Below are positions 862 to 27,961 of a stretch of 64,000 nt of DNA, piece by piece. This DNA is from a virus. The stretch is taken from the UHGV virus genome UHGV-1353844; one strand, given 5' to 3'. The notes beneath the pieces are model-generated. The model was not told where the DNA came from. It did not search any database and worked only from the letters and a program-made list of their open reading frames with translations. The stretch's first letter is position 1, and every line of letters starts with the position of its first letter. The position numbers were made by a program, and so were the translations under genes.

Positions 862-1779
862 ATGATAGACAATGTGGAATCCAGGATCTCGACGAAGTTG
901 TACGATAAACCCACTATATTGTCCGTAGTTACGACGTCTAAGTGTAACCTAGACTGTAGTTTCTGCGGTGGAGCCTACTACATGAATCGTGAAGATTCGT
1001 CTCGTGCTTTTCAACGCGAACGTATCCTGGAATTACTACAAGAGAATCCAGCTATTAAGGAAATACATTGGACGGGTGGTGAACCGCTACTCGTCCAACG
1101 TAAGATTGAGGATTTCGTTAACGAACTGAAAGTGTCTCATCCGCACCTTGAGCATCACTTGTATACCAACGGCTTAAAACTGCGTAAATCGCATCTTACG
1201 CTGCTAAAAGACTTTGAGCATGTGTTTGTATCAATTGATGGCTACAAACGTTCTGAGCGCCCTTTTATGCGCTTTATTGAAGAGGATAGCCACGAAGCAC
1301 TGGAAGCGTTATACGAACTCGATAACTTCCAAACCTGGGCTGTGATTACGCGTGACCAGTTAGCCGATAAGCGCTGGTATGAAGATATTGTGGATTTACA
1401 TCGTGCGATGTACCACTATCGTCCCCGTGCGTTTTCTCTGATGTTTGATGCCCAAATGCCAAAACCGTTGTCTCCCGATCACATCATGAACTTCGTTTAT
1501 GGTTATTTAAAGATTCAGGAGAATATGGAACGGCTGAACGTCCAAACCGGAGAATCGTGCGGCGTGTCTGTCAGCAAGATTTTCGAAAACGAGTGTAATG
1601 TCTGTAGCGAAGAGTTGTATTTGAACGCAGATGGAACAGAACATCAGCTTCAGAATGCACCGGCTATCTTAAACGGTGGGTGCAATCAGCTTGCTTGCTC
1701 TATCGGGGTAGGTGCTTACGAGTACATTAAACGCGTGATTTATGCAGAGCGTAAAAGGATAAGCAAAGATGAGCAATAA
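862..1779 (+). CDS. radical SAM enzyme with C-terminal auxiliary Cys cluster
   Basis: CNLDCSFC (CX3CX2C) near N-terminus, GGEPLL SAM-binding motif, C-terminal Cys-rich region; SD tggag upstream. Confidence 0.75.
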   Translation: MIDNVESRISTKLYDKPTILSVVTTSKCNLDCSFCGGAYYMNREDSSRAFQRERILELLQENPAIKEIHWTGGEPLLVQRKIEDFVNELKVSHPHLEHHLYTNGLKLRKSHLTLLKDFEHVFVSIDGYKRSERPFMRFIEEDSHEALEALYELDNFQTWAVITRDQLADKRWYEDIVDLHRAMYHYRPRAFSLMFDAQMPKPLSPDHIMNFVYGYLKIQENMERLNVQTGESCGVSVSKIFENECNVCSEELYLNADGTEHQLQNAPAILNGGCNQLACSIGVGAYEYIKRVIYAERKRISKDEQ

Positions 1780-3103
1780 TGAAGCACCACGTTCACAACG
1801 TACTTACCAGGTGGTAACGAACCTGTCTTGTAACTTAGACTGTGAGTATTGTTACGAACGTAAGTATCCGCGTAATAACAAAGCGGCGGATATCGTGGAT
1901 TTCTTACACGCCTGTTTTGAGCGTGATAAAGATATTCCGAACATCGACGTCATTATTGATATCATCGGCGGCGAACCTTTTATGCAACCGAAACTGCTGT
2001 TAGCGGCGTTTGAAACCGCAGAACAGTTGTGTAAGGAGCATAATCGACCGTATATGTTCAGTATCTCCACGAACGGGACGTTGTTAGACCGTCCGTTAAA
2101 CCGTGAGATCGTCGAGCGTTGGAAAGACAAACTCTCCATCGGTGTGTCTATCGACGGGCTGCCAGAAGTCCATGACCGTTATCGTATCTTTACCACGACG
2201 CGTCAGGGTTCTTACGAAGCCGCTGTTCGTGGCTATAACTACTTAAAAGAAGTGGGTATTGCTGAACTGGGTATCAAGGCAACCTTTACAACCGAAACCC
2301 TCCCGCATTACGCGGCGAGTATGAAGTCGTTAATCGATATTGCGGGTGGTGGTACGATTTCGGGTAACGTGACGTACGAAGATATCCTTCCACGGAGCAT
2401 GGCAACGGATATTGCGTTGCAGATGATCGAGGTGATGGATTATTGGATTGAGAAAGGGCTGCACACCAATCCACGTAACGTGTTGTCCCACATCATTCCT
2501 GAAGGTCTGGATTTCCGTCAGATTTGGGACCCAGATTGGCGTGATAAACTGCTGTACGACGACACGCACCGTTATAACCCTGAACGTTTACGTCCGTTCT
2601 GTGGGACGTTGACGTTTATGACTTGTTTAGGTTTTGACCGTAAGGTGTATGGTTGTAACCGATTCATGTCAACGGTAACGTCACGCTCTGCGGTGTTTGA
2701 GTTAGTCGGTCGTGAGTTTGTTAGCTTAGACGGCGGGAAACTGCTGGAAGAGATTCAGACGCAATACACCAACTATCCTGAAACGTGCTTAGGTTGTCCG
2801 ATGAAACACGGTTGTGGGAGCTGTGCAGCTGCTTCCTACGAAAACGGTGAAGGGACACTGGAAGACCGTAAGGCGTACCACGCTGAACGACGTCAATGTG
2901 GTTGGACGACCGCAAAACTGATGGCGGCAGAATACTGGCGTCAACGTACAGGCACCGTCCACGCATCGTCACTGCACGATTCGTCTGTTTGTTACTGTCC
3001 GAAATGTACGCGTGAGCGTGAGCAAGCTAAACGTGCGTTAAATGCACAACCTACTGAGGCAAATAATGAAATCAATTCTGATCCACAATTTTACGAAGCG
3101 TAA
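1769..3103 (+). CDS. radical SAM enzyme with SPASM-type C-terminal domain
   Basis: CNLDCEYC motif, GGEPF motif, C-terminal CLGCPMKHGCGSCAAAS cluster; overlaps upstream gene by 11 nt. Confidence 0.75.
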   Translation: MSNNEAPRSQRTYQVVTNLSCNLDCEYCYERKYPRNNKAADIVDFLHACFERDKDIPNIDVIIDIIGGEPFMQPKLLLAAFETAEQLCKEHNRPYMFSISTNGTLLDRPLNREIVERWKDKLSIGVSIDGLPEVHDRYRIFTTTRQGSYEAAVRGYNYLKEVGIAELGIKATFTTETLPHYAASMKSLIDIAGGGTISGNVTYEDILPRSMATDIALQMIEVMDYWIEKGLHTNPRNVLSHIIPEGLDFRQIWDPDWRDKLLYDDTHRYNPERLRPFCGTLTFMTCLGFDRKVYGCNRFMSTVTSRSAVFELVGREFVSLDGGKLLEEIQTQYTNYPETCLGCPMKHGCGSCAAASYENGEGTLEDRKAYHAERRQCGWTTAKLMAAEYWRQRTGTVHASSLHDSSVCYCPKCTREREQAKRALNAQPTEANNEINSDPQFYEA

Positions 3104-7500: not shown

Positions 7501-8091
7501 TCATTTTACTAACCCCGCTTTTACCGCATAATCTGCCATTTCTCTGAAGACGCGGCCGTACCAACCGTAGGTGTATTTCTCGTTTCTCTTACGTTTTTCG
7601 GAGATTTCCGTGTAGTAAGTTACTTGGTGCGAGATTAACGCAAAGATTAAAATGCTTAGCCCTTCATCTTTACGATATTTCAGGTACGCGTTCAACGCGC
7701 CCAGCGTTTTAGGCCCCATACCGCCGTCGGTATCGATGTCCGCGTAGAGTTTACCTTCGTTGTTCAACACGTTGAGAATACGCTGTAGCGATTTCACGCA
7801 GTTGGCACGACCTGCGTTAATACCAAAATCAAACATCCGGTCCGCGAGTAACGGTGAGATAGCGAAAATCTCATCAAGTTTGAGCTTCTTCCACCAACCG
7901 CGATCGTAGATATCGAATGCTTGTGCACGGGTAAGGTCTTTCATCTTCCCTGTGTAACCGTACTCACGTGCAGTCGTTACCGTGATACCGTGGTTCGTTT
8001 CTGCACCTAAGTCGTCAGGGTCGTTGACGTACCCGCCTTCCAAATCGGTTTTGGATTCAATGATACCTTCTTTAGACCAACGTTCAGCCAT
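7501..8091 (-). CDS. GH108-like lysozyme with C-terminal PG_binding_3-like domain (endolysin candidate)
   Basis: EGGYVNDPDDLGAETNHGIT N-terminal motif; C-terminal peptidoglycan-binding-like region. Confidence 0.55.
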   Translation of the reverse strand: MAERWSKEGIIESKTDLEGGYVNDPDDLGAETNHGITVTTAREYGYTGKMKDLTRAQAFDIYDRGWWKKLKLDEIFAISPLLADRMFDFGINAGRANCVKSLQRILNVLNNEGKLYADIDTDGGMGPKTLGALNAYLKYRKDEGLSILIFALISHQVTYYTEISEKRKRNEKYTYGWYGRVFREMADYAVKAGLVK

Positions 8092-8647: not shown

Positions 8648-9496
8648 TTAATCTAAGAATCCCGGTAAGACCGGATTAGTCTGTGCTAATTCAATCTTCG
8701 ACTTCGGACGATCGGTACCGTTAAAGTGAATTAACAGGTTACCGGTCAGGTTAGAACACAGCGGGCTGAGCGTTAGCACCAACACACGAGTGAACTTCGT
8801 ATTTGCGCCTTCGTAACCTGCGGTTGGACCATCGTAAATAACTTTAGCACCGTACAGGTTGTTAGCCGCGTTCTTAGGTACACTTACCCATTTCTCATCA
8901 ACGACGCCATCCAGTTTAGAGGCTAACTCTACCAAGTCTACGGTGTCGTTGATAGTAATCGGGTCAAGGTAATCTTTTTCTGCGGTGAAATCAATCGGGT
9001 GTGAATAAACCGCAGCGTTACCTTTCTTAGTGGACGGATACTCTACCAGATTCTCTAATTGAGTAACTGGTAAAAGTTCAGTCAGGTCAATAGGATCATG
9101 CAGCGTAAGCGTTACTACACCGCACCACTCGTAAGATTTCTCGTTAGCGGTAAGCTGATGGGTTTCGCCTTCAACTTTTGCGTCAACGATATCCGAGGGT
9201 AAAATATTTAGGCTGTATTTTGCGTTGATCGCATTAAGCAAATCTGATGCGGTTACCACACTGTCGTTACCGAATACCAACTCACCGGTTAAGTAGTCAG
9301 GTAAATTACGACGGTGGTAAGTCACTGTTAAAGTAGTAGACTCATCGCCTTTGAGTTTAGAGGTCAGAACCACCTGGGTATCAACCCCAGTACCGGTAGG
9401 TTCTCCGATATCAACATCACTGAAAGTCAACGGTGGACTAATATTGTTTTCAGTGTTGATGAGTTTTAGCAGTTTCTGTTTTGACGTAAGAGACAT
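8648..9496 (-). CDS. paralog-family protein (structural candidate)
   Basis: 282-aa ORF; motif similarity to 8155-8634. Confidence 0.6.
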   Translation of the reverse strand: MSLTSKQKLLKLINTENNISPPLTFSDVDIGEPTGTGVDTQVVLTSKLKGDESTTLTVTYHRRNLPDYLTGELVFGNDSVVTASDLLNAINAKYSLNILPSDIVDAKVEGETHQLTANEKSYEWCGVVTLTLHDPIDLTELLPVTQLENLVEYPSTKKGNAAVYSHPIDFTAEKDYLDPITINDTVDLVELASKLDGVVDEKWVSVPKNAANNLYGAKVIYDGPTAGYEGANTKFTRVLVLTLSPLCSNLTGNLLIHFNGTDRPKSKIELAQTNPVLPGFLD

Positions 9497-16960: not shown

Positions 16961-17473
16961 TTAACCACCAAAGGTTAAGACGCGATTATCTGCGGTAACG
17001 ATTAAATCGTTGTCTTTTACTACAGCGGCTTCTTCGTCGTTACCGAAAACCAGAACGGAGAATTGGCCTTTATAACCTAACGAGTTGGGTGAAACCTGTA
17101 ACGTTACAGCGTCTTTCCCTACGGTAAATGATTCGTCGGTAAGATCGTCGGGTTGTAAATTACAACCGCAAGCCGCGTTAATTCCGTCGATTAGATCGTG
17201 TGCGGTAAAACCATTACCGGAAACCTTTACCAGAATAGGTTGCTGGTTTAACCACCGCTCTGCGGTTAAACGGTTGTAATAGATTTGTAACGTTCTGTTA
17301 CCAGGACGTTTTATCTTTACAACAGCAGTGGTGTCACGATCCATTTCGTTACTGGTCTTTACGTCGCTGACTTCAACCTCGTTCTCTTGCAGGTCGAGCT
17401 GGAGGTCATGGTTAACCAGTGAAATAACCATGTTAAGTGAAGTTAACGACAAATCAGGCGTGAATTGTTCCAC
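16961..17473 (-). CDS. paralog-family protein (PDLSLTS N-terminus, YYNRL motif); GTG start
   Basis: 170-aa ORF, SD AGGAGG 8 nt upstream of GTG; paralog of 26897-27460. Confidence 0.6.
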   Translation of the reverse strand: MEQFTPDLSLTSLNMVISLVNHDLQLDLQENEVEVSDVKTSNEMDRDTTAVVKIKRPGNRTLQIYYNRLTAERWLNQQPILVKVSGNGFTAHDLIDGINAACGCNLQPDDLTDESFTVGKDAVTLQVSPNSLGYKGQFSVLVFGNDEEAAVVKDNDLIVTADNRVLTFGG

Positions 17474-17572: not shown

Positions 17573-18076
17573 TTAACTAATCTTCAAATCTCTTAATGTG
17601 CCGGTTGATTTCATCACGTTTTGGAAAGCAGTGCTAATGTTAGAGGTCCAGTAATAATGTTGACCATTAATAACCTGCTGATAGGCTACCGTACAAGTGT
17701 TGCCGCCTAGATTTACGGTGATGTTAGAAGCTCTCCCACCTTGTAAATAGACCGCTAAACTTGGTTTTGCATCAGCAGCCAATGTGATCAATAGTAGTTG
17801 GATACCAATAAGTGTGCCTACGCCGCAGCTACCAGGATTCTGAATAGTCCCTTTATTTTTCTGCGCTAACGGCCAGTTTGGTCCCACCGCACCCCAAAAT
17901 TTAGCCATTGAATCGCTATATGCAGCAGTTGCGATTTTACAGCCAAGAGATCGGCCCACCATTTGACTCATCATAAAAGGTCTACCCAATCCTAATTTAC
18001 TACCAGCAGCACTCATCCATTGTTCGCCCGTTTCGTTCTTGGCCGAAGAACCGACCCATCCAGATGCTACCCCCAT
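17573..18076 (-). CDS. fibre-associated protein sharing N-terminal ~45 aa with the Gly-rich protein (possible tip adhesin variant)
   Basis: GWVGSSAKNETGEQWMS N-terminus paralogous to 18137-18919. Confidence 0.55.
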   Translation of the reverse strand: MGVASGWVGSSAKNETGEQWMSAAGSKLGLGRPFMMSQMVGRSLGCKIATAAYSDSMAKFWGAVGPNWPLAQKNKGTIQNPGSCGVGTLIGIQLLLITLAADAKPSLAVYLQGGRASNITVNLGGNTCTVAYQQVINGQHYYWTSNISTAFQNVMKSTGTLRDLKIS

Positions 18077-18136
18077 TATACCCTATCCTTTTGAAAGGTG
18101 TGAGGAGGGGAGTGAGTATCCCCATACTTTTTCAAA

Positions 18137-18919
18137 TTAAACACGTGAACCATATATTGCACCTACTGCGTCCCATCTTGGCGCATTACCTCTAACGGCT
18201 GCACCAGCGGCTCCGCCGTTATATTCTGTACCGTTACCATGAGTATTACATCTTCCTCCAGCAGCACCGACATTACCACCCGAACCGCCTGTATATGCAC
18301 TAAGAGACCCCTCACCAACAGATCCTCTACCAGGAGCGGAAATAGTACCAGCAGCTGCACCGGAACTCATATGTGAGGAAGACCCACCAGCACCGAATGG
18401 GCGACCACCGCCACCACCAAATATTAGTCTACCCCTGTTACCGCCGCCACCGCCGCCACCGCCTCCGGCAATAGCGCCACGGTTGGTTATACGCAGTCTG
18501 TTTCCTATTCCGTTCTGTATTGCGGTTCCACCTGCACCGCCTGGTGAGTTAGAACCGCCGTTGCCTCCTCTGCCGTATACTGTAACCCCAGGATTGATGA
18601 TGAGTGTAATATACGAATTTGGAAGATTGCTAGGGAATTCTAAACAAGGAACCCCGCTACTATAAGACACTAAATCCCCTGTAATGGTCACAACGACAGC
18701 ATTAGAGCCTATAGAACGTAAATAGTTAATAAGCGTATCTTTATTGTAATTGTGATTAGCCCCGATCGAATACTGAACCTCTTTTGATTTTCCCGCCAAT
18801 TGCGACATCCAGCCTGGAACCGGCACACCAAGTGTGCGCATCGCGCCAGACATCCAATCGTTACCAGTTTCAGCTTTTGCTGAAGAACCAATCCAACCAC
18901 CTACGCCGACAACTGCCAT
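18137..18919 (-). CDS. glycine-rich protein immediately downstream of tail fibre (possible adhesin or tip protein)
   Basis: poly-Gly tracts (GGGGGGGGGN, GGGGRPFGAGG); start overlaps fibre stop (TAATG). Confidence 0.6.
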   Translation of the reverse strand: MAVVGVGGWIGSSAKAETGNDWMSGAMRTLGVPVPGWMSQLAGKSKEVQYSIGANHNYNKDTLINYLRSIGSNAVVVTITGDLVSYSSGVPCLEFPSNLPNSYITLIINPGVTVYGRGGNGGSNSPGGAGGTAIQNGIGNRLRITNRGAIAGGGGGGGGGNRGRLIFGGGGGRPFGAGGSSSHMSSGAAAGTISAPGRGSVGEGSLSAYTGGSGGNVGAAGGRCNTHGNGTEYNGGAAGAAVRGNAPRWDAVGAIYGSRV

Positions 18920-21900
18920 TAGGATCTTCCTTTAATTTCGTTAACCTCTTGACGCAACGCTTTCATACCCTCTACTAACAGCGCAATAACGCCATTGTAG
19001 TTTAGACGTAAACGTTTTTCGCCTGAAATGGCATCATCATCCTCAGACACAAGTTCAGGTAACGCTTCTAATGCGTCTTGAGCAATTAGACCTACCGAAG
19101 TGTTCCAACCGTCGTCTGGATGTTGAACCTCGTACAGATAGCCGGTAAGCGCTTCTAACCGATCCAAAGCCTTATCCAGCTTCACCAGATTACGTTTGTT
19201 GCGACGGTCAGAACGAATCTGTACGTCGTTAAACGAACCGTTACCGTTGCTAGAAATGTTATGACCAAAGGTTACTTGACCGTTAGAGTTATTAAAATAC
19301 AACGGACGTAGTCCGTTCCAGGAACCCGTTGCGGCTTGTCCGGAGTCGGTTACTAAGAAATAGGTATTGGCACCATCATTACGTAAAATGAAACCGCAGC
19401 TACCGTAAGCGATTCGGAAATCAGCATACTTCGTAACCAGTTTACCGTTAACCGTTAAATCGCCAGTGACAGTACCGCCGCTGTTCTTCAAAAACAGCGC
19501 ATCAATCCAGCCTGCAAATCCTGACTTATTGATGTATAAATTTCCATCATTTGCCAGAATGCCGCCACCCGGCGTCTTGAGAGGCTGACTCACATTTTGC
19601 AGCGTCAGCACACCATTCAATTGACCGCCAGATAATGGCAACGCCCCAACATCCGCAGCAGTTGGCTTGTTTTTCGTATTGTAAGCGCGACGCCAACCTG
19701 GTGAGTAAGCATCACCGTTATTTACGTAGATAAACTCCGCATTAGTGAGTGCGCCGCCGACGCTCGTCGTTGTGGGGGTCGTTATACGGATCGTGTAGTT
19801 GTTTGCGCTGTTACTAATCACTTCTATAACAGCCCCAGCTAACGGAATAACACCACAACCCGTCTCGCTGTTCGGTATGGACGCACTAGCAGCATAAGCC
19901 CATGCACAGCGAGCAACCCATGATTTTGTGGTAAACGCGCCGTTATTTTGCAATAACGTCACTAGCTGTGCTGTAGTTATTGCGCCGCCGTCTTTACCAG
20001 TCTCCAACCAACCAGTGGGCGAAGCCGGACAACCTATATCGGCAGGCCCTAACGATATATTTCTAGTACCGTCAAATGCGATACCGTTAATGGTACGCGC
20101 TGTCTGCAACTTTGTTGCCGTGGCTGCGTTTCCGGTAGTCGACTGATTACCCGTCTGGTTTACACCGGGCAGACTAATGTCTTGCGAACCGTCAAAGTTA
20201 ACACCGCCGATCTTACGTGCTGTTTGTAACTTAGTAGCGGTCGCTGCATTACCTGTCGTATTCTGGTTGCCTTGCTGGTTAACCCCCGGTAAATTGATAT
20301 CCCCAGTACCGTCAAAGGTAACGCCGCCGATTCTGCGAGCGGTTTTCAGTTTCGTCGCGGTAGCGGCATTGCCAGTAGTATCCTGATTACCGGTGGTATT
20401 TACACCAGGAATACTGTCACGGGCAGTATAAACTTGTGCCCAATCTGACCACGGCGCATCAGCCGTATCGCGTCGACTACGAATATAAACGGGTGCGTGT
20501 GCACCACTCGTGCCCGACCAACCAATTAACAACTCACCTTCGCCTAGCGCATTAGCACCACCTAAGTGCAGCAAGTTACCATAGGCGGTTGGATAACCGT
20601 TATTGTAAACTTCGTACATCTGGATACCAGGTGTACCCTTGTTCGACCCGGTCAGAGCGGTAACCCGTCCACGACCTACCAAGGTGTTGATATTGATGTC
20701 TCCAGAGCCATCGAATTTCACACCGTTAATATTTCTGGCGGTTTGAAGTTTAGTGGCTGTCGCGGCGTTACCTGTGGTGTTTTGATTACCTTGTTGGTTA
20801 ACACCTGGGAGGTTAACGTCGCCGCTGCCGTCGAAAGCGACCCCGCCAATTCTACGCGCAGTCTGGAGCTTAGTGGCGGTTGAAGCATTGCCGGTTAACT
20901 CACCTGCTAACCCTTTTGCAAAGGTCTGTTTCTCTGCCCAAGTGTGGGCTGCGTTCAACACAGGCATCTGTCGTGGCGTAATCGTACGGCTACCCTTCTC
21001 GCCAGCGATACGTACTGCAAAGAAGCGATAGTTAGCAGTAGACACTGTACCGCGCCAGACCAACATACTCCGACCAGTACCGGTGTCCTCTGACGCCCCT
21101 ACGAGAATACTGACCAAGTTACCGTCAATAACACCCCAATCCATTCCCGCAGGAATGTTTTTCATGGTATTCAACGGTGTACTTATCATCTGGCCAGGAA
21201 CGAAATCGAAGGTTTGCCAGTCTAACGGATCGACCTTGGCAGCAACCCCACCGATCCCTAAAGCCAACGGGAGTGAATAGGATGTGAAAATCTCTCGCCA
21301 TTCGCTCCAGGCGTTTCCTGTACGAATTCGTTGGAACTTGCGACCTTTCGTAGTTGCGCCTGTACCGTATGTGGTATAATTTTGTTCAACGCCTGAACCG
21401 TCTAAGCGTAAGGTAACTTCGCAAACACCTAACAAGGTTGCGCCAGCAGAGTCTGTTAACGGACCGTCAGTAGCCTCACCGGTAACACTAAAACGACCAG
21501 GTTTAGTTAAGTCATTAAAGCTACCCTTATAGTAGGCACCGTCTACCTGATACCCAACTTGAATCCAATCTTCCCACTGTGGATTAGACGCATCCCAAGT
21601 CGCAGTCAACCCACGGACATACATCGTACCACGACGAGTGGTGTAACGTTGCATACGTCCGTAGAGACCACCTTCCATTACTTCTAATACACCTTGAGCA
21701 TTACCACCTTCTTCGGGATAATGACGATCGAACGTCGCAAGAGAAGAACTGGAGTTACGCCACTGACCCATGTGTTCAACACCACCTAAAGTGTTAAGGT
21801 CAATAGTGGTGGAGAGCGGACGGTTCGCGGTAGTTGTCATTCTCCAGGGCGACCAAGGGCCGTTAGTACCGTTCCAGGTTCCTGTTAAACGACGAGTATA

Positions 21901-23385
21901 GACGTTACCGTTACGTATGGTAAAACGTTGGCTTCCGCTGTAGTTACCTGCTTTGAATACCTCTAAGTAACCAACTGCATCGTCTTCCGGGAAGTTCTTT
22001 GCAATTGTTGCATTCGTAGACGTGGCTTTAGACCAGACACCCATAAACGCTTCGACTGGGCCGAAGGTGTTGATATCCGCATCTACTGCCATTTCCCCAT
22101 TAAACTTCAAATACGTCTCTGCTGACAACCCGATGTTCTTCGCGAAGGTGACTTTATCTGGAATATCGGCACCGTTAGAACTGCGTTGCATAGCACCCGC
22201 AGCTTTATCAACAGTGGTTTTCAAACCCAGGAAGTTAATGATATCTGCCGTCGACCCTTTCGCTAACAAATCACGCGCAGTCGAGGTGAAATCCGCTAAC
22301 CCTACCTGATTACTACCGGTAAAGTAAGGGAGTTTGTTTGCAGCGGTGGTGACTGCGGCAATCGCTGTCAGTAACGGACTTAACGGCTGTTTACCCGCGA
22401 GTTGGTTCGTCATCGTTGTCGCAAAGTTAGGATCGTTTCCTAACGCAGCTGCAATTTCTGATAACGTATCTAACGTCTCGGGTGAAGAGTCCACTAATTC
22501 AGCAATCGCTTGCCGTACCCATGCGGTCGTTGAGACGCTCGTGTCGTTAGAATCCGAAGCAGGTGTTGGTGCTTTTACCACACCGGTAAAAGTTGGGTTG
22601 TGACGGTTTGCTTTTAACTGCAAATCTTCATTTAACTGCTTAACCGTTGACGGCGTAGCCGCTTCAGTAACAGAGTCACTGCTTAAGGTATTATTAAGTC
22701 TAACGATACCTTTACTGGTCGTTGTTGCATCAACGTTACCTTTTGCAGCGATTTCTTCTGCACGCTTAGCCGCTGCCTCAGAACGCGTTGCCGCATTCTC
22801 TGCGGTTTCTTTGTCTGTGGTAACTTGCGTTGCTGTAGCTTCTACAGCGGCTTTTGACGACTCTACCGACGCGACAGCTTCGTTAACTGCCGTAAGCGAC
22901 TGTTCGACTTGACCGGCTTGTGTGGCAACAGTTTCTGCTTTCTTCGTAACGGTAGTCACCGCTTGTGTGACGTTGGCCTCGCTTGCCGCTACCGCTTGCG
23001 CTTTCTCATTAACGGACACAACCTGGGTATCTACCGCCGTTTTCGCGGCTAACACTTCAGTGTGTTTTGTACCGACTTCAGTTGCTTTTTCGGTTACAGT
23101 TTGCGCTTGTTGAGCAACTGTAGCCGCAACGGTGTCAGTTTGTTGTTTTGCTGTTTCTGCTAAATTCTTTGCTTGTGTAGCCTGAGTTGCAGCTTCTTGT
23201 GATTGTGTTGCTGCTGTTTGTGCATCAGACACCGCATTACGTACGGTGTCAATATCTGCAACGATCTCACGGACAGGTAACTTATAATCTTTCTCATCCT
23301 TGGAAAAAAGTAAAACACCTTCACCTATATCCCCGGTGTATGGACGTAAATCGTGTAAACGAATTTTCTTTACCGCTTTAGCCAT
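18919..23385 (-). CDS. long tail fibre protein with N-terminal anchor, A/T/Q-rich coiled coil, five NTTGNAATATKLQTAR repeats and C-terminal intramolecular chaperone (S74-type autoproteolytic) domain
   Basis: 1488-aa ORF; C-terminal SDRRNKRNLVKLDKALDRLEALTGYLYE segment; repeat motif typical of phage fibre repeats. Confidence 0.85.
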   Translation of the reverse strand: MAKAVKKIRLHDLRPYTGDIGEGVLLFSKDEKDYKLPVREIVADIDTVRNAVSDAQTAATQSQEAATQATQAKNLAETAKQQTDTVAATVAQQAQTVTEKATEVGTKHTEVLAAKTAVDTQVVSVNEKAQAVAASEANVTQAVTTVTKKAETVATQAGQVEQSLTAVNEAVASVESSKAAVEATATQVTTDKETAENAATRSEAAAKRAEEIAAKGNVDATTTSKGIVRLNNTLSSDSVTEAATPSTVKQLNEDLQLKANRHNPTFTGVVKAPTPASDSNDTSVSTTAWVRQAIAELVDSSPETLDTLSEIAAALGNDPNFATTMTNQLAGKQPLSPLLTAIAAVTTAANKLPYFTGSNQVGLADFTSTARDLLAKGSTADIINFLGLKTTVDKAAGAMQRSSNGADIPDKVTFAKNIGLSAETYLKFNGEMAVDADINTFGPVEAFMGVWSKATSTNATIAKNFPEDDAVGYLEVFKAGNYSGSQRFTIRNGNVYTRRLTGTWNGTNGPWSPWRMTTTANRPLSTTIDLNTLGGVEHMGQWRNSSSSLATFDRHYPEEGGNAQGVLEVMEGGLYGRMQRYTTRRGTMYVRGLTATWDASNPQWEDWIQVGYQVDGAYYKGSFNDLTKPGRFSVTGEATDGPLTDSAGATLLGVCEVTLRLDGSGVEQNYTTYGTGATTKGRKFQRIRTGNAWSEWREIFTSYSLPLALGIGGVAAKVDPLDWQTFDFVPGQMISTPLNTMKNIPAGMDWGVIDGNLVSILVGASEDTGTGRSMLVWRGTVSTANYRFFAVRIAGEKGSRTITPRQMPVLNAAHTWAEKQTFAKGLAGELTGNASTATKLQTARRIGGVAFDGSGDVNLPGVNQQGNQNTTGNAATATKLQTARNINGVKFDGSGDININTLVGRGRVTALTGSNKGTPGIQMYEVYNNGYPTAYGNLLHLGGANALGEGELLIGWSGTSGAHAPVYIRSRRDTADAPWSDWAQVYTARDSIPGVNTTGNQDTTGNAATATKLKTARRIGGVTFDGTGDINLPGVNQQGNQNTTGNAATATKLQTARKIGGVNFDGSQDISLPGVNQTGNQSTTGNAATATKLQTARTINGIAFDGTRNISLGPADIGCPASPTGWLETGKDGGAITTAQLVTLLQNNGAFTTKSWVARCAWAYAASASIPNSETGCGVIPLAGAVIEVISNSANNYTIRITTPTTTSVGGALTNAEFIYVNNGDAYSPGWRRAYNTKNKPTAADVGALPLSGGQLNGVLTLQNVSQPLKTPGGGILANDGNLYINKSGFAGWIDALFLKNSGGTVTGDLTVNGKLVTKYADFRIAYGSCGFILRNDGANTYFLVTDSGQAATGSWNGLRPLYFNNSNGQVTFGHNISSNGNGSFNDVQIRSDRRNKRNLVKLDKALDRLEALTGYLYEVQHPDDGWNTSVGLIAQDALEALPELVSEDDDAISGEKRLRLNYNGVIALLVEGMKALRQEVNEIKGRS
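20040..20420 (-). repeat. imperfect ~120-bp tandem DNA repeats inside fibre gene encoding the GNAATATKL repeats
   Basis: three successive units ending ccgtcaaa(g)ttaacaccgccgat / ccgtcaaaggtaacgccgccgat. Confidence 0.6.
20693..20895 (-). repeat. second block of the same fibre repeat
   Basis: units gccatcgaatttcacaccgttaat / gccgtcgaaagcgaccccgccaat. Confidence 0.55.
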
Positions 23386-23419
23386 GATATTTAATTCTCT
23401 ATCGGGAGCTAAAAGATCT

Positions 23420-23453
23420 GGGGGAGGTAAAGCACCTCCCCCAACATTTTTAT
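23420..23453 (-). other. GC-rich hairpin between enzyme gene and fibre gene (attenuator or terminator)
   Basis: gggggaggt-aaagc-acctccccc. Confidence 0.4.
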
Positions 23454-23463
23454 AAGCGGGTTA

Positions 23464-26400
23464 TTATTGCTCCGGTTTTAATGGAACATCTTCTATCGTT
23501 AACGTAACGTCTAAGACCGCTTGACTGTGGTCAGTAATCGCTAAGTCACGATAAATATTAGCGTTGGGTCCGTAGGTTTTATAAGTAACGTAGAGACCTA
23601 ACGCACGTAGCACTTCTCCAGTGTAGAACCCATAAGCCATTCCGTTATCAGAAGACTCTCGAGCGGCTGGAGACCACGCTCCATTAATCGGCTTATTCGG
23701 AATTGAGGTAATCGTAAACCCTTCACCTAACTCCTTAATTGCCGCATTAACCACTTTTTCGTAGTTCGGATTCGTTGCACCGGCGAGTAATGCCCAGCAA
23801 CACCCTGCTAACCACAACCCACACATATGTGCGGTGAAGTCGTTTTCCACCCAAACAGCTTTATCCGGTGCTGTAGGGAACTCGTTAGGAGTGTGGCCGT
23901 TAAACCGATCCACAAACCCACCTAGCCAATTCACCCAGTTGTCAATATAGGTTGTTAACGCCTCGGGAACGTCTTTACCTCGCAGTTTCAGTTCGTACCA
24001 ACACCGACACGCAGCATGAAACGCGCGAGGCTGATACCCTGCCCAAGGATGGTCATCACCCCAATGGAACGTCGTCCAGGTATCCGCTTCTCCGTAGCTG
24101 TAGTTGTCCCAACGGTTCCAGATATAAGCTGCGCAACCAGGTCCTAATTCCCCAATTTGCTGTTGGTAAGCCAACTGCGAATCGTGCAGGAATTGAATCT
24201 GGTTATCTAACCACAACTTATACCGGTCGTCTTTGTGGATACTGTACATAAACGGATACTGATAACCTGGATAAGGCATCCCGTGCCAAGCACCTAACTG
24301 TTCTGAACCTTCTAAGTAGCTGTTCGTGAACGGTATCGTACCCGGACAGTACGCTAACGAATCCAATCGGTAATCTACAATCGTACAATCACCCACCTTT
24401 GCATCAAACTCTGCACCACCGCGTAAGGCAATACGGAAGGTTAAAATATAACCATCGTCTTTATTAAAGACCGGTGGGACATCGTTAACACAATAGTAAG
24501 CAAAGTGTGCATGGTCAACTGTGGAGTCAGGAAGAATCGTGACCTGATCCACCTTATCGAAATTCGGTGCTGAAGGTTTAGGGTCAGCGTCTGTGTGGTC
24601 TGGCTGATAACCGGAAAGTGTGGCTTCATCCGGATTCAACGTTACCTGACGCCATTCGTTGTTTGTGTTGGGTAACATCCACCACCAAAGCCAGTTATCA
24701 CTGTCGACTAAACGCAAGTTAAAATCTGCGTCTGCACGGTAAACAATAGAAACGGGTTTTACCTTCTCTTCAGCGGTTAACCAAAACCCGATAATAAACC
24801 CGGCACTGTCATCAGGAAATTCCGCTTCTACCACGGTACCCGCGCGACCATCGTAAATGCTATCCTCAAAACGTTCTTCCCACGTACAACCACCGTAGTC
24901 CGAACACGCACGGGCTTCAGCTATCAGGTAGTCTCCCCCTTCTGGGGTGGTAATACGGGAAAGTTGGCCTAAGTCAACATCGTACTGTTTAACGGTATTT
25001 ACCGTAGACCGAGGTAAGGTTAAACCGTACCAGTTTACCTCCTCGGTATCAGCTTTCGCAGGGTTAATGTTCACCATCACTTTACAGTAGACAGGATCGC
25101 CATTCTTACAAACTCCACCGTACGTGACACGTAGTTTAGAGTCTTTGTTAATCCTGAACCTAACCGCTTTTTGCTCCATAAAGTGCTGCGCCGCTTCAGG
25201 CACGTGGATGGTAATGTCTCCATTCTCATCACGGCCGTAGGTGGCACTTACGGTATCTGGGTAATCGAAATCGTACGAAATACCGTCAGTAAACGGTGTA
25301 TCCGCAGCGGTAGAACGACGGAAGAATTTATCTGTCGCATCAATATACGTGTACTCATGTGCGGTGTAGAAAGCACAGTCTAATGCTTGTTTGTATTTCT
25401 CTTCACCTGTGATTCGCCACAGCAAATAACAGGCGTCGATAAACCACAGTTCAGCATCAGCGGCGTTACCGTATTGGTTTTTCGACCCTAAGAACGGTGT
25501 GTGGACCGGACGGTTGTGCCACGGCTCATTACGTTTAAATTCGTAACCGCCGTGTTCGACAGGAAGTTTTACCGCGTAGTTAATTAAATAGACACCGTTT
25601 AACTGTGTGTCTTTTAACTGTACGGTACCTTTATCAGCGTCTGCTAATCCCGTCTCAATAATTTCACCATCCTGGATTTTGTTACCCGTCCAGGCAATTA
25701 TCCAGTCAACGTCGTGTTTAGGAGCTTTTGTTGCAGAGCCGCCCCAAAGCGGGGTGTAACCTGTAGTATTATTTAGCAGTGTTGGCCAATCGACCCAAGC
25801 TGTGCTTTCGTAAGGCTTATCAGGATTAGTAATAACGTGAGTTAAAACGTCTTCCCAATTAATCGACCCTTCTTTGTCTTCCTTGATAATCTGTACATCT
25901 GCGTTAATCGCGGCCCAGGCAGGGTGGCCACGATATGCAAACGTACAGATATCCAAATACTCTCCCCAGAAAGGTGCACCGTGCGGTATCTTACATTGGC
26001 CATTTGTAAACCTTACAGGAACACATTTATACCCGCCGTTGGTAGGTTCCGTAGGGTGAATAGGATAGTGTGCTAATACCGGTTCTTTCCCGTTTACTAA
26101 CCAGTTACAAATCCGACGCTGGGGTGTTGTCGGAATAGGCTGTCCGGCGTAGAAGTACGTGTTGTACGCATCCCAGGCGTGTTTCGCAGCATCTAACCAT
26201 CTTTCGTCTTTTGTTGCGATATACATGTGGCAATAACCGATAATGTGTAACGACTGACCCTCGGTCGTTGCGTCACCGTTCGGTTGGTATTCCGCCATGG
26301 TATCAGCGATGAAATGACGGTTATTCGACAGAACACCTTCTTCGTTTTGAATGTAATGATCGATATGTGCGTCGTTAGTCGTTCCCGTATTCCGGGTAAC

Positions 26401-26469
26401 GAAGGATTGGTGACCGTAAGCTAACGATAACGCGTAGCTAATCGCGTGACGCTGAAAATGTTTTCTCAT
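23464..26469 (-). CDS. large W/Y-rich enzyme-like tail protein (candidate polysaccharide-degrading depolymerase)
   Basis: 1001-aa ORF rich in Trp/Tyr/Asp; lies in-frame directly after anchor ORF, separated only by TAA. Confidence 0.65.
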   Translation of the reverse strand: MRKHFQRHAISYALSLAYGHQSFVTRNTGTTNDAHIDHYIQNEEGVLSNNRHFIADTMAEYQPNGDATTEGQSLHIIGYCHMYIATKDERWLDAAKHAWDAYNTYFYAGQPIPTTPQRRICNWLVNGKEPVLAHYPIHPTEPTNGGYKCVPVRFTNGQCKIPHGAPFWGEYLDICTFAYRGHPAWAAINADVQIIKEDKEGSINWEDVLTHVITNPDKPYESTAWVDWPTLLNNTTGYTPLWGGSATKAPKHDVDWIIAWTGNKIQDGEIIETGLADADKGTVQLKDTQLNGVYLINYAVKLPVEHGGYEFKRNEPWHNRPVHTPFLGSKNQYGNAADAELWFIDACYLLWRITGEEKYKQALDCAFYTAHEYTYIDATDKFFRRSTAADTPFTDGISYDFDYPDTVSATYGRDENGDITIHVPEAAQHFMEQKAVRFRINKDSKLRVTYGGVCKNGDPVYCKVMVNINPAKADTEEVNWYGLTLPRSTVNTVKQYDVDLGQLSRITTPEGGDYLIAEARACSDYGGCTWEERFEDSIYDGRAGTVVEAEFPDDSAGFIIGFWLTAEEKVKPVSIVYRADADFNLRLVDSDNWLWWWMLPNTNNEWRQVTLNPDEATLSGYQPDHTDADPKPSAPNFDKVDQVTILPDSTVDHAHFAYYCVNDVPPVFNKDDGYILTFRIALRGGAEFDAKVGDCTIVDYRLDSLAYCPGTIPFTNSYLEGSEQLGAWHGMPYPGYQYPFMYSIHKDDRYKLWLDNQIQFLHDSQLAYQQQIGELGPGCAAYIWNRWDNYSYGEADTWTTFHWGDDHPWAGYQPRAFHAACRCWYELKLRGKDVPEALTTYIDNWVNWLGGFVDRFNGHTPNEFPTAPDKAVWVENDFTAHMCGLWLAGCCWALLAGATNPNYEKVVNAAIKELGEGFTITSIPNKPINGAWSPAARESSDNGMAYGFYTGEVLRALGLYVTYKTYGPNANIYRDLAITDHSQAVLDVTLTIEDVPLKPEQ

Positions 26470-26931
26470 TTAGTAACCCGCTGCAAGAAGAGAACCTTTC
26501 CAAGTGGCACCCCCGTCAAGGGTATAAAGCGACAGAGTGTCTTCCGCATTTGCCGTGTAGGATAAAACCGGTTTTGCACCGTGAGGCCACTTAACGTTTT
26601 CAGGCCAGGTTACTTTATTCGCCCCTGTTCCCTGCTTAAACGTTAGCATTACTTCGAAACGGGTATTTTCCGCAACGTTAGTAAGGGCTGCGAACGTCAC
26701 CGTAGTAGTGGGATCGTTTAACACCAGAATAATGTCAGTGCTGGTATTGAAATCCAACGTGGCGGCATTATTCGAACCGTTAACCGTGGTGACTGTCGCA
26801 ACCGGGGCTAACTTATCAACATCAATTTTATATTCTTTATTGTCTTTGCTATACAGCAGTACCCCGCCCTGCGGTGTGCCTGCGTAGCTTTCGAGCTCAT
26901 GGAGTCTCGTCTTCTTCAGTGCTGTCGCCAT
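26470..26931 (-). CDS. tail-fibre N-terminal anchor-domain protein
   Basis: MATALKKTRLHELESYAGTPQGGVLLYSKDNKEYK aligns with fibre N-terminus MAKAVKKIRLHDLRPYTGDIGEGVLLFSKDEKDYK; ATG at 26931 with SD GAGG. Confidence 0.6.
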   Translation of the reverse strand: MATALKKTRLHELESYAGTPQGGVLLYSKDNKEYKIDVDKLAPVATVTTVNGSNNAATLDFNTSTDIILVLNDPTTTVTFAALTNVAENTRFEVMLTFKQGTGANKVTWPENVKWPHGAKPVLSYTANAEDTLSLYTLDGGATWKGSLLAAGY

Positions 26932-27460
26932 CTGTAACCTCGAATGTAAGAACGGCATTGTCACCAATACAGAAGATTGCATCTTCTTCGTTTGCTAATG
27001 CCCGTTCGGTTGTATCAAACAACGTCACCATAAACGCGTTCATCCACGCAGGAGAATCGTCGGCAACGTTAACGGAAATGGGATCGTTACCTAAAGTGAT
27101 ATCTGAAGCACGTAAATCCTCGGGTTGTAAGTTCGTTCCGCAGAATTCATTTACAACACTAAGAATGTCACGAACGTTGTCTTCAGTACCGTCTAACGAA
27201 ATCAGAATGGGTTCATACGTTAATACTTCATCTGCGTCGAGTCTGTCGTAATAAACCACAACAGACGCACCATCTGGTTTTCTGATTTTACTGATTTCGG
27301 TAATGGTGTTACGACGCGAAGTTGTTGGAGATGAGTTTGTTACGGTCCCGCTAATACGTATTTCGTTTAGCGTAAGCTGTAACCCATTATCGTGATTGAT
27401 TAAAGCGACCACTAGCTCTGCTGAGGTCAGACTCAAATCAGGTACGTATGGTGTGGCCAC
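26897..27460 (-). CDS. paralog-family protein (PDLSLTS, VYYDRL); GTG start
   Basis: 187-aa ORF; paralog of 16961-17473. Confidence 0.6.
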   Translation of the reverse strand: MATPYVPDLSLTSAELVVALINHDNGLQLTLNEIRISGTVTNSSPTTSRRNTITEISKIRKPDGASVVVYYDRLDADEVLTYEPILISLDGTEDNVRDILSVVNEFCGTNLQPEDLRASDITLGNDPISVNVADDSPAWMNAFMVTLFDTTERALANEEDAIFCIGDNAVLTFEVTDGDSTEEDETP

Positions 27461-27473
27461 TTAACCCTCCGAG

Positions 27474-27521
27474 ATCAAAAAAAAATAAAACACCTACCGC
27501 CCATAGAATCGGGCGGTAGGA
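27474..27521 (-). terminator. rho-independent terminator
   Basis: cctaccgccc-atagaatc-gggcggtagg hairpin preceded by A9 run on plus strand. Confidence 0.7.
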
Positions 27522-27586: not shown

Positions 27587-27961
27587 TTATTCGGTTAATT
27601 CTCCACACAACACAACGTCGATACCAAACATCATTCCCACTTCTTGAAGTTTGTTCGCCAGTAAGTGTCGATGACAAAACTTACCTGCGGGACAATAACA
27701 CATCAAAACCAAGTCATCGTGTCTGAGTAACGACACTAAAACTTCGGCATCAGTATCTAACAGTCGTTCGAGTTTGTACAAATACTTTATCGTGTACTCA
27801 CGTTCAGCGGCAGCGTCCTTGACAGAAGATTTATACGCCATTAGGAAATCCCAGTCGGGGGCGAGTTCCTTTCGACCTGACTTCACGGTGATATCCACCG
27901 CGTGAAATCCTTTCTGCTTAGCTAACCGCCACTTAGCGAGTTGTAGCGTCCAGATACGCAT
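27587..27961 (-). CDS. small conserved protein with CYC...C.HR motif (DUF488-like, tentative)
   Basis: LVLMCYCPAGKFCHRHLLA segment. Confidence 0.35.
   Translation of the reverse strand: MRIWTLQLAKWRLAKQKGFHAVDITVKSGRKELAPDWDFLMAYKSSVKDAAAEREYTIKYLYKLERLLDTDAEVLVSLLRHDDLVLMCYCPAGKFCHRHLLANKLQEVGMMFGIDVVLCGELTE

Follow-up and report, generated by a model that had tools for sequence, protein, structure and literature searches.

A widespread phage tail protein with a predicted GH8-like barrel, and its small putative adaptor gene, in an SPN3US-like jumbo phage genome

Large tail proteins annotated as putative glycosidases have been reported from several phages. According to a table that follows Schwarzer 2012, phi92 gp141 is a putative glycosidase tail protein (PMC5380687). 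In a 2026 electron cryomicroscopy (cryo-EM) study of phi92, the wedge (gp145-gp146), hub and spike were modelled while gp141 was never placed, and the arm of the L-shaped fibre I and the whole of fibre II were left with no assigned protein (PMC13450770). The virion mass-spectrometry table of SPN3US includes gp124 and gp123, neither flagged as a head protein, with gp124 less abundant than the 12-copy portal (PMC5694885), and ORF17 of Loughboroughvirus S144 is a 111 kDa virion protein with an HHpred 'hydrolase' hint (PMC7432712). A further example, bas54_0026 of BASEL phage Bas54 (MaxBurger), is annotated as a 'lateral tail fiber protein with glycosidase domains' and tolerates disruptive insertions in the transposon sequencing of the HIDEN-SEQ preprint; neither virion formation nor the infection of K-12 therefore requires it. 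Here we analyse a homologue of these proteins, a 1001-residue putative tail protein encoded at positions 23464..26469 (minus strand) of a 64,000-nucleotide stretch of UHGV virus genome UHGV-1353844 (the window), together with the small gene that precedes it. The window belongs to a new SPN3US/Erskinevirus-like jumbo phage with only approximately 73% nucleotide identity to its nearest GenBank relatives.

Our preferred and, we think, fairly probable reading is that the 1001-residue protein is held on the virion by an adaptor and serves there, in an accessory role, as a GH8-like glycanase or glycan binder whose target is a glycan that many Gammaproteobacteria share (GH8, glycoside hydrolase family 8). 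In the arrangement that we infer from homology, the predicted fold, conserved motifs, cassette architecture, the virion location of homologues and the dispensability of one homologue, the protein would form the larger of the two subunits of a tail appendage encoded by a portable pair of genes. The small adaptor would fit the particular virion through its variable N-terminus, while its C-terminal domain of approximately 100 residues would presumably dock the N-terminus of the large protein, which would be globular, probably monomeric and located at the baseplate periphery. Its GH8-like (alpha/alpha)6 barrel and inserts resembling carbohydrate-binding modules (CBMs) would most likely bind and cleave a beta-linked surface polysaccharide common to many Gammaproteobacteria, with Glu70 acting as the general acid and Asp338 holding the -1 sugar. 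The outcome would be an accessory, non-essential aid to adsorption through a common glycan layer.

The gene itself is a single open reading frame (ORF) of 1001 codons with an ATG start that fills 23464..26469 on the minus strand; the plus-strand translation of the same interval contains stops throughout. The product (113.4 kDa, with an acidic isoelectric point of 5.0) matches PHROG 2871 ('tail protein') with 1457 bits over residues 6-983, and tblastn retrieved homologues from 539 phage records, 521 of them full length, so the reality of the gene is far beyond chance. A preliminary description of this interval, which left the strand unstated, had reported a Trp/Tyr-rich protein with many Asp and Gly residues. 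Compared with the other minus-strand ORFs of the window, Trp (3.6% versus 1.5%, a 2.3-fold excess), Tyr (6.1% versus 4.2%) and Asp (7.9% versus 6.3%) are indeed enriched, as are His and Cys, but Gly, at 7.5%, is not.

The tblastn search placed the closest homologues in Erwinia phage Asesino (76% identity) and SPN3US-type Salmonella jumbo phages (71%, with at least 99% of the length aligned), followed by 84-kb Erwinia and Hafnia phages (55%), Rosemountviruses (46%), Asteriusvirus jumbo phages (44%), the phAPEC8/phi92/PVP-SE1 group (41%), the phiEco32-like phage 7-11 (41%), a T7-like Aeromonas podovirus (40%), Vibrio Ackermannviridae (30%) and rV5-like Vequintaviruses, including Bas54 (28%). The phi92 homologue is gp141 itself, which is 41% identical over 99% of the protein. 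Prophage copies from Acinetobacter, Pseudomonas, Brenneria, Shewanella, Spongiibacter and Psychrosphaera were found in a metagenomic protein database, and the module recurs in BFVD in proteins labelled as tail fibres of other phage types. A HMMER scan of 1.84 billion cluster representatives (50% identity) returned 378 family proteins at E <= 1e-3, comprising full-length members, fragments and longer fusion proteins, and provided no bridge from the family to cellular GH8 or other cellular enzyme families. Judged by its sequence, the protein is an ordinary member of a widespread tail-protein family (PHROG 2871) that is already annotated as a putative glycosidase. Since this fold class had been predicted earlier for homologues and the family is abundant, the gene adds a member to a known, biochemically uncharacterised kind.

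An AlphaFold2 model built on a 76-sequence alignment was of high predicted quality (predicted local distance difference test score 90.9, predicted template-modelling score 0.88). In this model, helices from residues 2-26, 69-106, 337-379 and 751-966 form a single barrel with a predicted GH8-like (cellulase-like) (alpha/alpha)6 fold, which is the fold of GH8 and clan GH-M. Residues 1-106 (26152..26469, minus strand, as are all segments and codons of this protein) supply barrel helices alpha1-alpha3 and the motif ATTE70GQS, in which the E70 codon lies at 26260..26262. A beta-rich insertion of residues 107-336 (25462..26151) then separates alpha3 from alpha4, where the E. coli GH8 enzyme BcsZ has approximately 29 residues. 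Helices alpha4-alpha5 (residues 337-379, 25333..25461) carry the motif AAD338AE340LWFID345, with the D338 codon at 25456..25458. Two CBM-like beta-sandwich domains (residues 398-698, 24376..25278) are also inserted in the barrel; their Foldseek matches are CBM22, CBM11 and SGBP-B, and they are the least conserved folded part, with a mean identity of 42-46% versus 52-66% for the barrel segments. The C-terminal half of the barrel (residues 739-966, 23572..24255) contains the conserved residues W784, R786, D788, R815, W845 and E952 (codon 23614..23616), with Y733, Y736 and Q737 just upstream, and these motifs persist in remote family members. The right-handed parallel beta-helix of classical trimeric tailspikes is absent from the model, in agreement with the preliminary description, which had seen no obvious repeat periodicity of that kind in the sequence.

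Domains have been shuffled within the wider family, as noted for P0114, P0012, P0107 and P0332. Homologue P0114 has an RCC1-like propeller (residues 424-648) in place of the beta-sandwich insert, while P0012 and P0107 bear C-terminal Big_2 (Ig-like) or podophage Gp77 fibre-adaptor extensions, and the C-terminus is poorly conserved across the family. Remote members of 1200-2000 residues carry the module at their C-terminal end.

The residues that stay invariant across 20 sequences down to 31% identity include E70, Q72, D338, E340, D345, R384, Y733, Q737, W784, R786, R815, W845 and E952, and most of them sit at the N-termini of barrel helices, a pattern that resembles an active site. Both family alignments (A1 and A2) show E70 and Q72 without exception. 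The segment ATTE70GQS matches TTSE55GQS of BcsZ, whose E55 is the GH8 proton donor; the proton-donor motif T-[ST]-E-G-Q-[SA] is thus present at the level of sequence. Likewise, AAD338AELW corresponds to ASD116GDVW (SNSASD116GDVWM) of BcsZ, and in both proteins the TTEGQS- and AADAE-type motifs start the second and fourth helices. BcsZ D116 belongs to the GH8 signature A-[ST]-D-[AG]-D, from whose strict pattern AAD338AE340LW departs at several positions. The pattern [ST][ST]E[GAS]Q occurs in 196 of the 219 long family members, including remote ones (E approximately 1e-40 to 1e-60) whose N-termini HMMER had left unaligned; translation of the window in all six frames (128,000 residues) yields it a single time. 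D338 and W342 are retained in remote members too. When a 95-sequence profile of the barrel was compared with the BcsZ family profile using hhalign, the best matches were these same two motifs, with the Viterbi algorithm picking TSE55GQS and the maximum-accuracy (MAC) algorithm picking the ASD116 motif, and the alignment was colinear over 295 columns at a permissive threshold. Distant true GH8 structures likewise match the BcsZ profile through this region only. The result is interpretable only with the BcsZ family profile; against the single BcsZ sequence, a shifted hairpin was aligned (E 0.45) and this comparison was discarded.

Several results weigh against a GH8-like glycanase. The hhalign link is statistically marginal (E 0.04-0.07, with 0.038 against the BcsZ family profile; HH probability approximately 1%), and the GH8a base motif S-Y-D-A-x-R (SYD243AIR in BcsZ) has no conserved acidic counterpart in the family: the Y812-Q813-x-R815 motif features Q, E or Y at position 813, where the base motif has D. 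A candidate base, D796, was aligned to BcsZ D243 at a low MAC threshold but was rejected because this position alternates between D and N across the family. The GH8 model PF01270 gave no match at E <= 1 on full-length or barrel-only sequences. The sole Pfam match of the full-length protein was a sub-threshold hit to GH76 (PF03663; 18 bits versus a gathering cut-off of 25.9, residues 49-109 only), which also remained below the cut-off in two homologues (13-16 bits), and barrel-only constructs with the inserts removed matched only GH76, GH47 and GH127, all below threshold. NCBIfam returned nothing, neither the protein nor a 76-sequence profile matched any sequence in the PDB, and the literature searched contains no report of a biochemical activity for any family member. 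A structural role, too, could account for the strong conservation across hosts. By sequence, the protein thus belongs to no curated glycoside hydrolase family. We nevertheless grade a glycosidase activity as probable, since the conservation resembles that of an active site.

The missing base and the lack of a match to any glycoside hydrolase hidden Markov model also suit the main rival proposal, in which the protein serves as a scaffold or lectin and has no catalytic function. Its place in a side fibre would then be that of an 'arm' or branching hub, such as the proximal part of the L-shaped fibre I of phi92, with a degenerate glycosidase fold kept for glycan binding or protein-protein contacts and other fibres hung from it. 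The gene is strongly conserved rather than variable within genera, and it precedes fibre genes in rV5, phi92 and the window; some homologues bear the fibre-adaptor or Ig extensions described above, and in P2-like prophages the protein is fused to the wedge protein gpI. The phi92 cryo-EM study assigned no protein to the arm of fibre I or to fibre II and gave gp141 no place (PMC13450770). In Bas54, genes 0026, 0027 and 0028 are all dispensable, as expected of one fibre. On the other hand, the invariant Glu/Gln/Asp/Trp/Arg set at the N-termini of barrel helices, which even members as distant as E 1e-40 retain, exceeds what a scaffold needs and copies GH8 active-site motifs. Moreover, a T7-like podovirus encodes the pair at the tail-fibre position and has no other tail-fibre gene annotated in the 15-kb stretch examined. 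We therefore regard a non-catalytic role as unlikely, although it deserves serious consideration.

A more specific version of the glycanase reading can be put forward tentatively, as a possibility that we would rate short of probable. The family would represent a glycoside hydrolase family of clan GH-M that has so far gone unclassified, related to GH8 but with its catalytic base relocated, acting as a single-chain, adaptor-anchored virion enzyme and as a generalist 'matrix cutter', unlike type-specific trimeric tailspikes. Cellulose-type and other beta-1,4 polysaccharides of the matrix or envelope would be examples of its substrate, and the cassette would owe its spread through podoviruses, myoviruses, jumbo phages and P2-like prophages to the cleavage of a glycan that many Gammaproteobacteria share.

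The pattern of conservation also bears on the specificity of such an enzyme. Across phages of Salmonella, Erwinia, Escherichia, Hafnia, Klebsiella, Aeromonas, Pseudomonas and Acinetobacter, protein identity remains at 40-76%, and in Vequintavirus the homologous gene is 93-99% identical at the nucleotide level across 118 genomes, with no sign in these records of the hypervariability between close relatives that is seen in receptor-specific tailspikes. This agrees with the BASEL text, which describes conserved sugar-domain genes in the fibre locus alongside three other fibre genes that vary. The preliminary description had suggested that the protein may be a carbohydrate-active, capsule- or exopolysaccharide-degrading enzyme; the glycosidase-type fold and GH8-like motifs are in line with the first half of that idea, while capsule-type specificity is contradicted by the conservation. 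A depolymerase for particular capsule or exopolysaccharide types, which would set the capsular types that are infected, could account for a carbohydrate-active enzyme fold with CBM-like domains next to receptor-binding genes, and alpha/alpha toroids do occur among phage depolymerase candidates. It is, however, hard to reconcile with a gene that stays nearly constant in Vequintavirus while the neighbouring fibre genes vary, or with such identities across phages of eight host genera, and we consider it very improbable. The dispensability of the homologue on non-capsulated K-12 is neutral by itself and shows no essential role.

Two observations on the Vequintavirus homologues are recorded here. 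Eighteen GenBank records (MG0656xx, e.g. H72 and H79-H81) are named 'Campylobacter phage' with C. jejuni as host and are 97-98% nucleotide-identical to rV5 in the homologous gene; these genomes are rV5-like in size, and the stated host seems questionable. The 'glycosidase R87*' escape mutation of Bas51 from a retron paper was considered as a possible lesion in the homologous gene and is probably not one, as the approximately 98%-identical homologue of Bas54 has Asp instead of an Arg codon at residue 87.

The 1001-residue protein is encoded immediately downstream of a small gene at 26470..26931 (minus strand), a homologue of phi92 gp140 and SPN3US gp123 whose product has 153 residues when counted from M18. 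Upstream of M18 the frame stays open as far as 26982, and the longest form of the ORF would overlap the upstream gene by 86 nucleotides. A start at M18 (26931) has GAGG 6 nucleotides upstream and leaves a 35-nucleotide overlap, and a 94%-identical metagenomic contig also calls the gene at 153 residues, so M18 is probably the start. The stop codon directly abuts the ATG of the large gene (TAA-ATG). Such a small gene immediately precedes the large one in the window and in eight phage groups, a cassette that was seen in podoviruses, myoviruses and jumbo phages. In an alignment (A3), the small proteins of the eight groups share a C-terminal domain of approximately 100 residues (QGTGxNKVTWP...GATW.G) with one Asp-box, over which the window protein is 40% identical to phi92 gp140, whereas the N-terminus varies from almost nothing to approximately 180 residues. 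In the T7-like Aeromonas phage, this N-terminus is the T7 tail-fibre N-terminal domain and the pair follows internal virion protein D, at the usual position of the fibre gene; in rV5, it is a Tail_spike_N anchor. A P2-like prophage has no adaptor, and the large protein (from approximately residue 5) is instead fused to a complete gpI wedge domain downstream of gpV-gpW-gpJ. The Tail_P2_I domain (PF09684) is absent from the 1001-residue protein and was found only in homologues such as P0082, fused at the N-terminus. One copy of gpI is present per wedge in P2/Mu-type baseplates. These arrangements suggest that the small protein is a virion-specific adaptor, that the N-terminus of the large protein is its attachment point and, by analogy with gpI, that the large module may work as a single chain. 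The GH8-type motif match, the adaptor logic across podoviruses, myoviruses and jumbo phages, and the gpI fusion are not stated in the literature searched, and we offer them as leads.

Data on virions come from homologues. The computed masses of the SPN3US homologue and its small partner (113.7 and 16.5 kDa) equal those of gp124 and gp123 in the virion table, and the low abundance of gp124 is, as a rough estimate, compatible with approximately six copies (PMC5694885). Virion location is known by mass spectrometry for SPN3US gp124/gp123 and S144 ORF17 only, and a literature search on SPN3US gp124 found no paper. A further reading is a virion-associated peptidoglycan hydrolase, which would cut the beta-1,4 N-acetylglucosamine-N-acetylmuramic acid backbone and aid cell-wall penetration. 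GH8-like enzymes cut beta-1,4 glycans and the family spans broad hosts, and peptidoglycan is the one beta-1,4 glycan common to all of these hosts. However, tail lysins are located on the central spike, on the hub or on the tape measure and not on peripheral, adaptor-anchored appendages, while this cassette is attached via fibre- or tailspike-type anchors or the wedge protein gpI. The homologue is dispensable, and the window already has a separate endolysin-like ORF (7501..8091). A role in cell-wall penetration therefore seems extremely improbable.

The adaptor and large genes form part of a conserved three-gene order. The first gene (26897..27460, minus strand) encodes a 187-residue DUF7941/phrog_2935 virion-protein paralogue, assigned using PHROG and, on the 94%-identical contig, Pfam; the order of DUF7941 protein, adaptor and large protein is the same in SPN3US and Asesino. 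A terminator-like hairpin at 27493..27520 (minus strand) lies upstream of this unit, and a second, GC-rich terminator-like hairpin with a T-run after it on either strand (23418..23444) lies between the large gene and the tail-fibre gene, so that the two apparently bracket a three-gene transcription unit with the DUF7941 gene first. Just upstream, a DUF488-N3a family protein is encoded at 27587..27961 (minus strand), in the same place as a 'DUF488 family protein' of SPN3US.

Downstream of the cassette, and outside it, Pfam and PHROG identified a T-even-type fibre module (17573..23385, minus strand) comprising a 1488-residue tail fibre with Gp34_trimer and Peptidase_S74 (chaperone) domains (18919..23385), a gp38 adhesin (18137..18919) and a second gp38-N-like ORF (17573..18076), all on the minus strand. 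The preliminary description had placed the large gene directly upstream of the tail fibre. This is true of the window, but the hairpin at 23418..23444 intervenes, and SPN3US and Asesino have small hypothetical genes rather than a fibre at that position. The fibre/gp38 module, which is also present in the 94%-identical contig, is therefore a lineage-specific addition and not a conserved partner of the 1001-residue protein. The gp38 gene is approximately 80% nucleotide-identical to that of RB49/JSE; with the absence of the module at this position in SPN3US and Asesino, this suggests horizontal acquisition of the module from coliphages and hints at an Escherichia-like host for the window phage.

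Elsewhere in the window, three DUF7941/phrog_2935-1037 'virion structural protein' paralogues are encoded on the minus strand (the one at 26897..27460 and others at 16961..17473 and 8648..9496). They look like the SPN3US head paralogue family B, and the two that flank the adaptor, large-protein and fibre region might mark recombination boundaries. Two adjacent radical-SAM ORFs (305 and 444 residues, phrog_1802) lie within 862..3103 on the plus strand, at the left end of the window.

With 539 GenBank phage records, the family is among the most widely shared large tail proteins of Gammaproteobacteria phages. If the GH8-like site is active, it would constitute a broad-specificity virion glycanase that would go some way towards accounting for how wide a range of hosts phi92- and rV5-like phages have, and that would be useful as a biofilm- or matrix-degrading enzyme. 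For the window, the protein is a typical family member and is unlikely to be a capsule-specific depolymerase.

Among the closest described systems are SPN3US gp124/gp123 and Asesino gp141/gp140, which have 71-76% identity and the same three-gene order, but where small hypothetical genes follow in those phages, the window has a T-even-type long fibre and gp38 adhesin. The phi92 pair gp141/gp140 (with PVP-SE1 gp50 and phAPEC8 'tail protein I') likewise consists of a full-length homologue and a small upstream partner. It is located inside the baseplate block, after sheath initiator gp139, whereas the window pair lies in an SPN3US-type jumbo genome away from recognisable baseplate genes, and gp141 lacks approximately 40 residues of the first insertion. 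The rV5/Bas54 protein bas54_0026 is homologous over 96% of the length and keeps E70, Q72, D338, E340 and E952, and its adaptor shares the C-terminal domain of the window adaptor, the rV5 one having a Tail_spike_N anchor; it is nevertheless only approximately 28% identical, has 865 residues and shows second-shell changes (N49-H52 missing, W342M and Y812L). Identity to GH8 and clan GH-M enzymes (BcsZ, C. thermocellum CelA and CPF_2247) is approximately 10%, and, unlike in those enzymes, the barrel is predicted to be interrupted by two large insertions of 230 and approximately 360 residues.

Two-component tail appendages provide a further comparison; K1E/K1-5 is described in PMC13450770 as combining an arm-like scaffold with an endosialidase. 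By analogy with K1E/K1-5 and with the CBA120/G7C anchor-domain systems, a small virion-specific anchor protein would here carry a separate sugar-processing subunit, and the family adaptors use anchor families of known two-component appendages, namely the T7 fibre N-terminal domain and Tail_spike_N. Unlike in those systems, the large subunit is predicted to be an alpha-barrel made of one chain, for which fusion to the single-copy gpI also occurs, rather than a trimeric beta-helix or beta-propeller spike.

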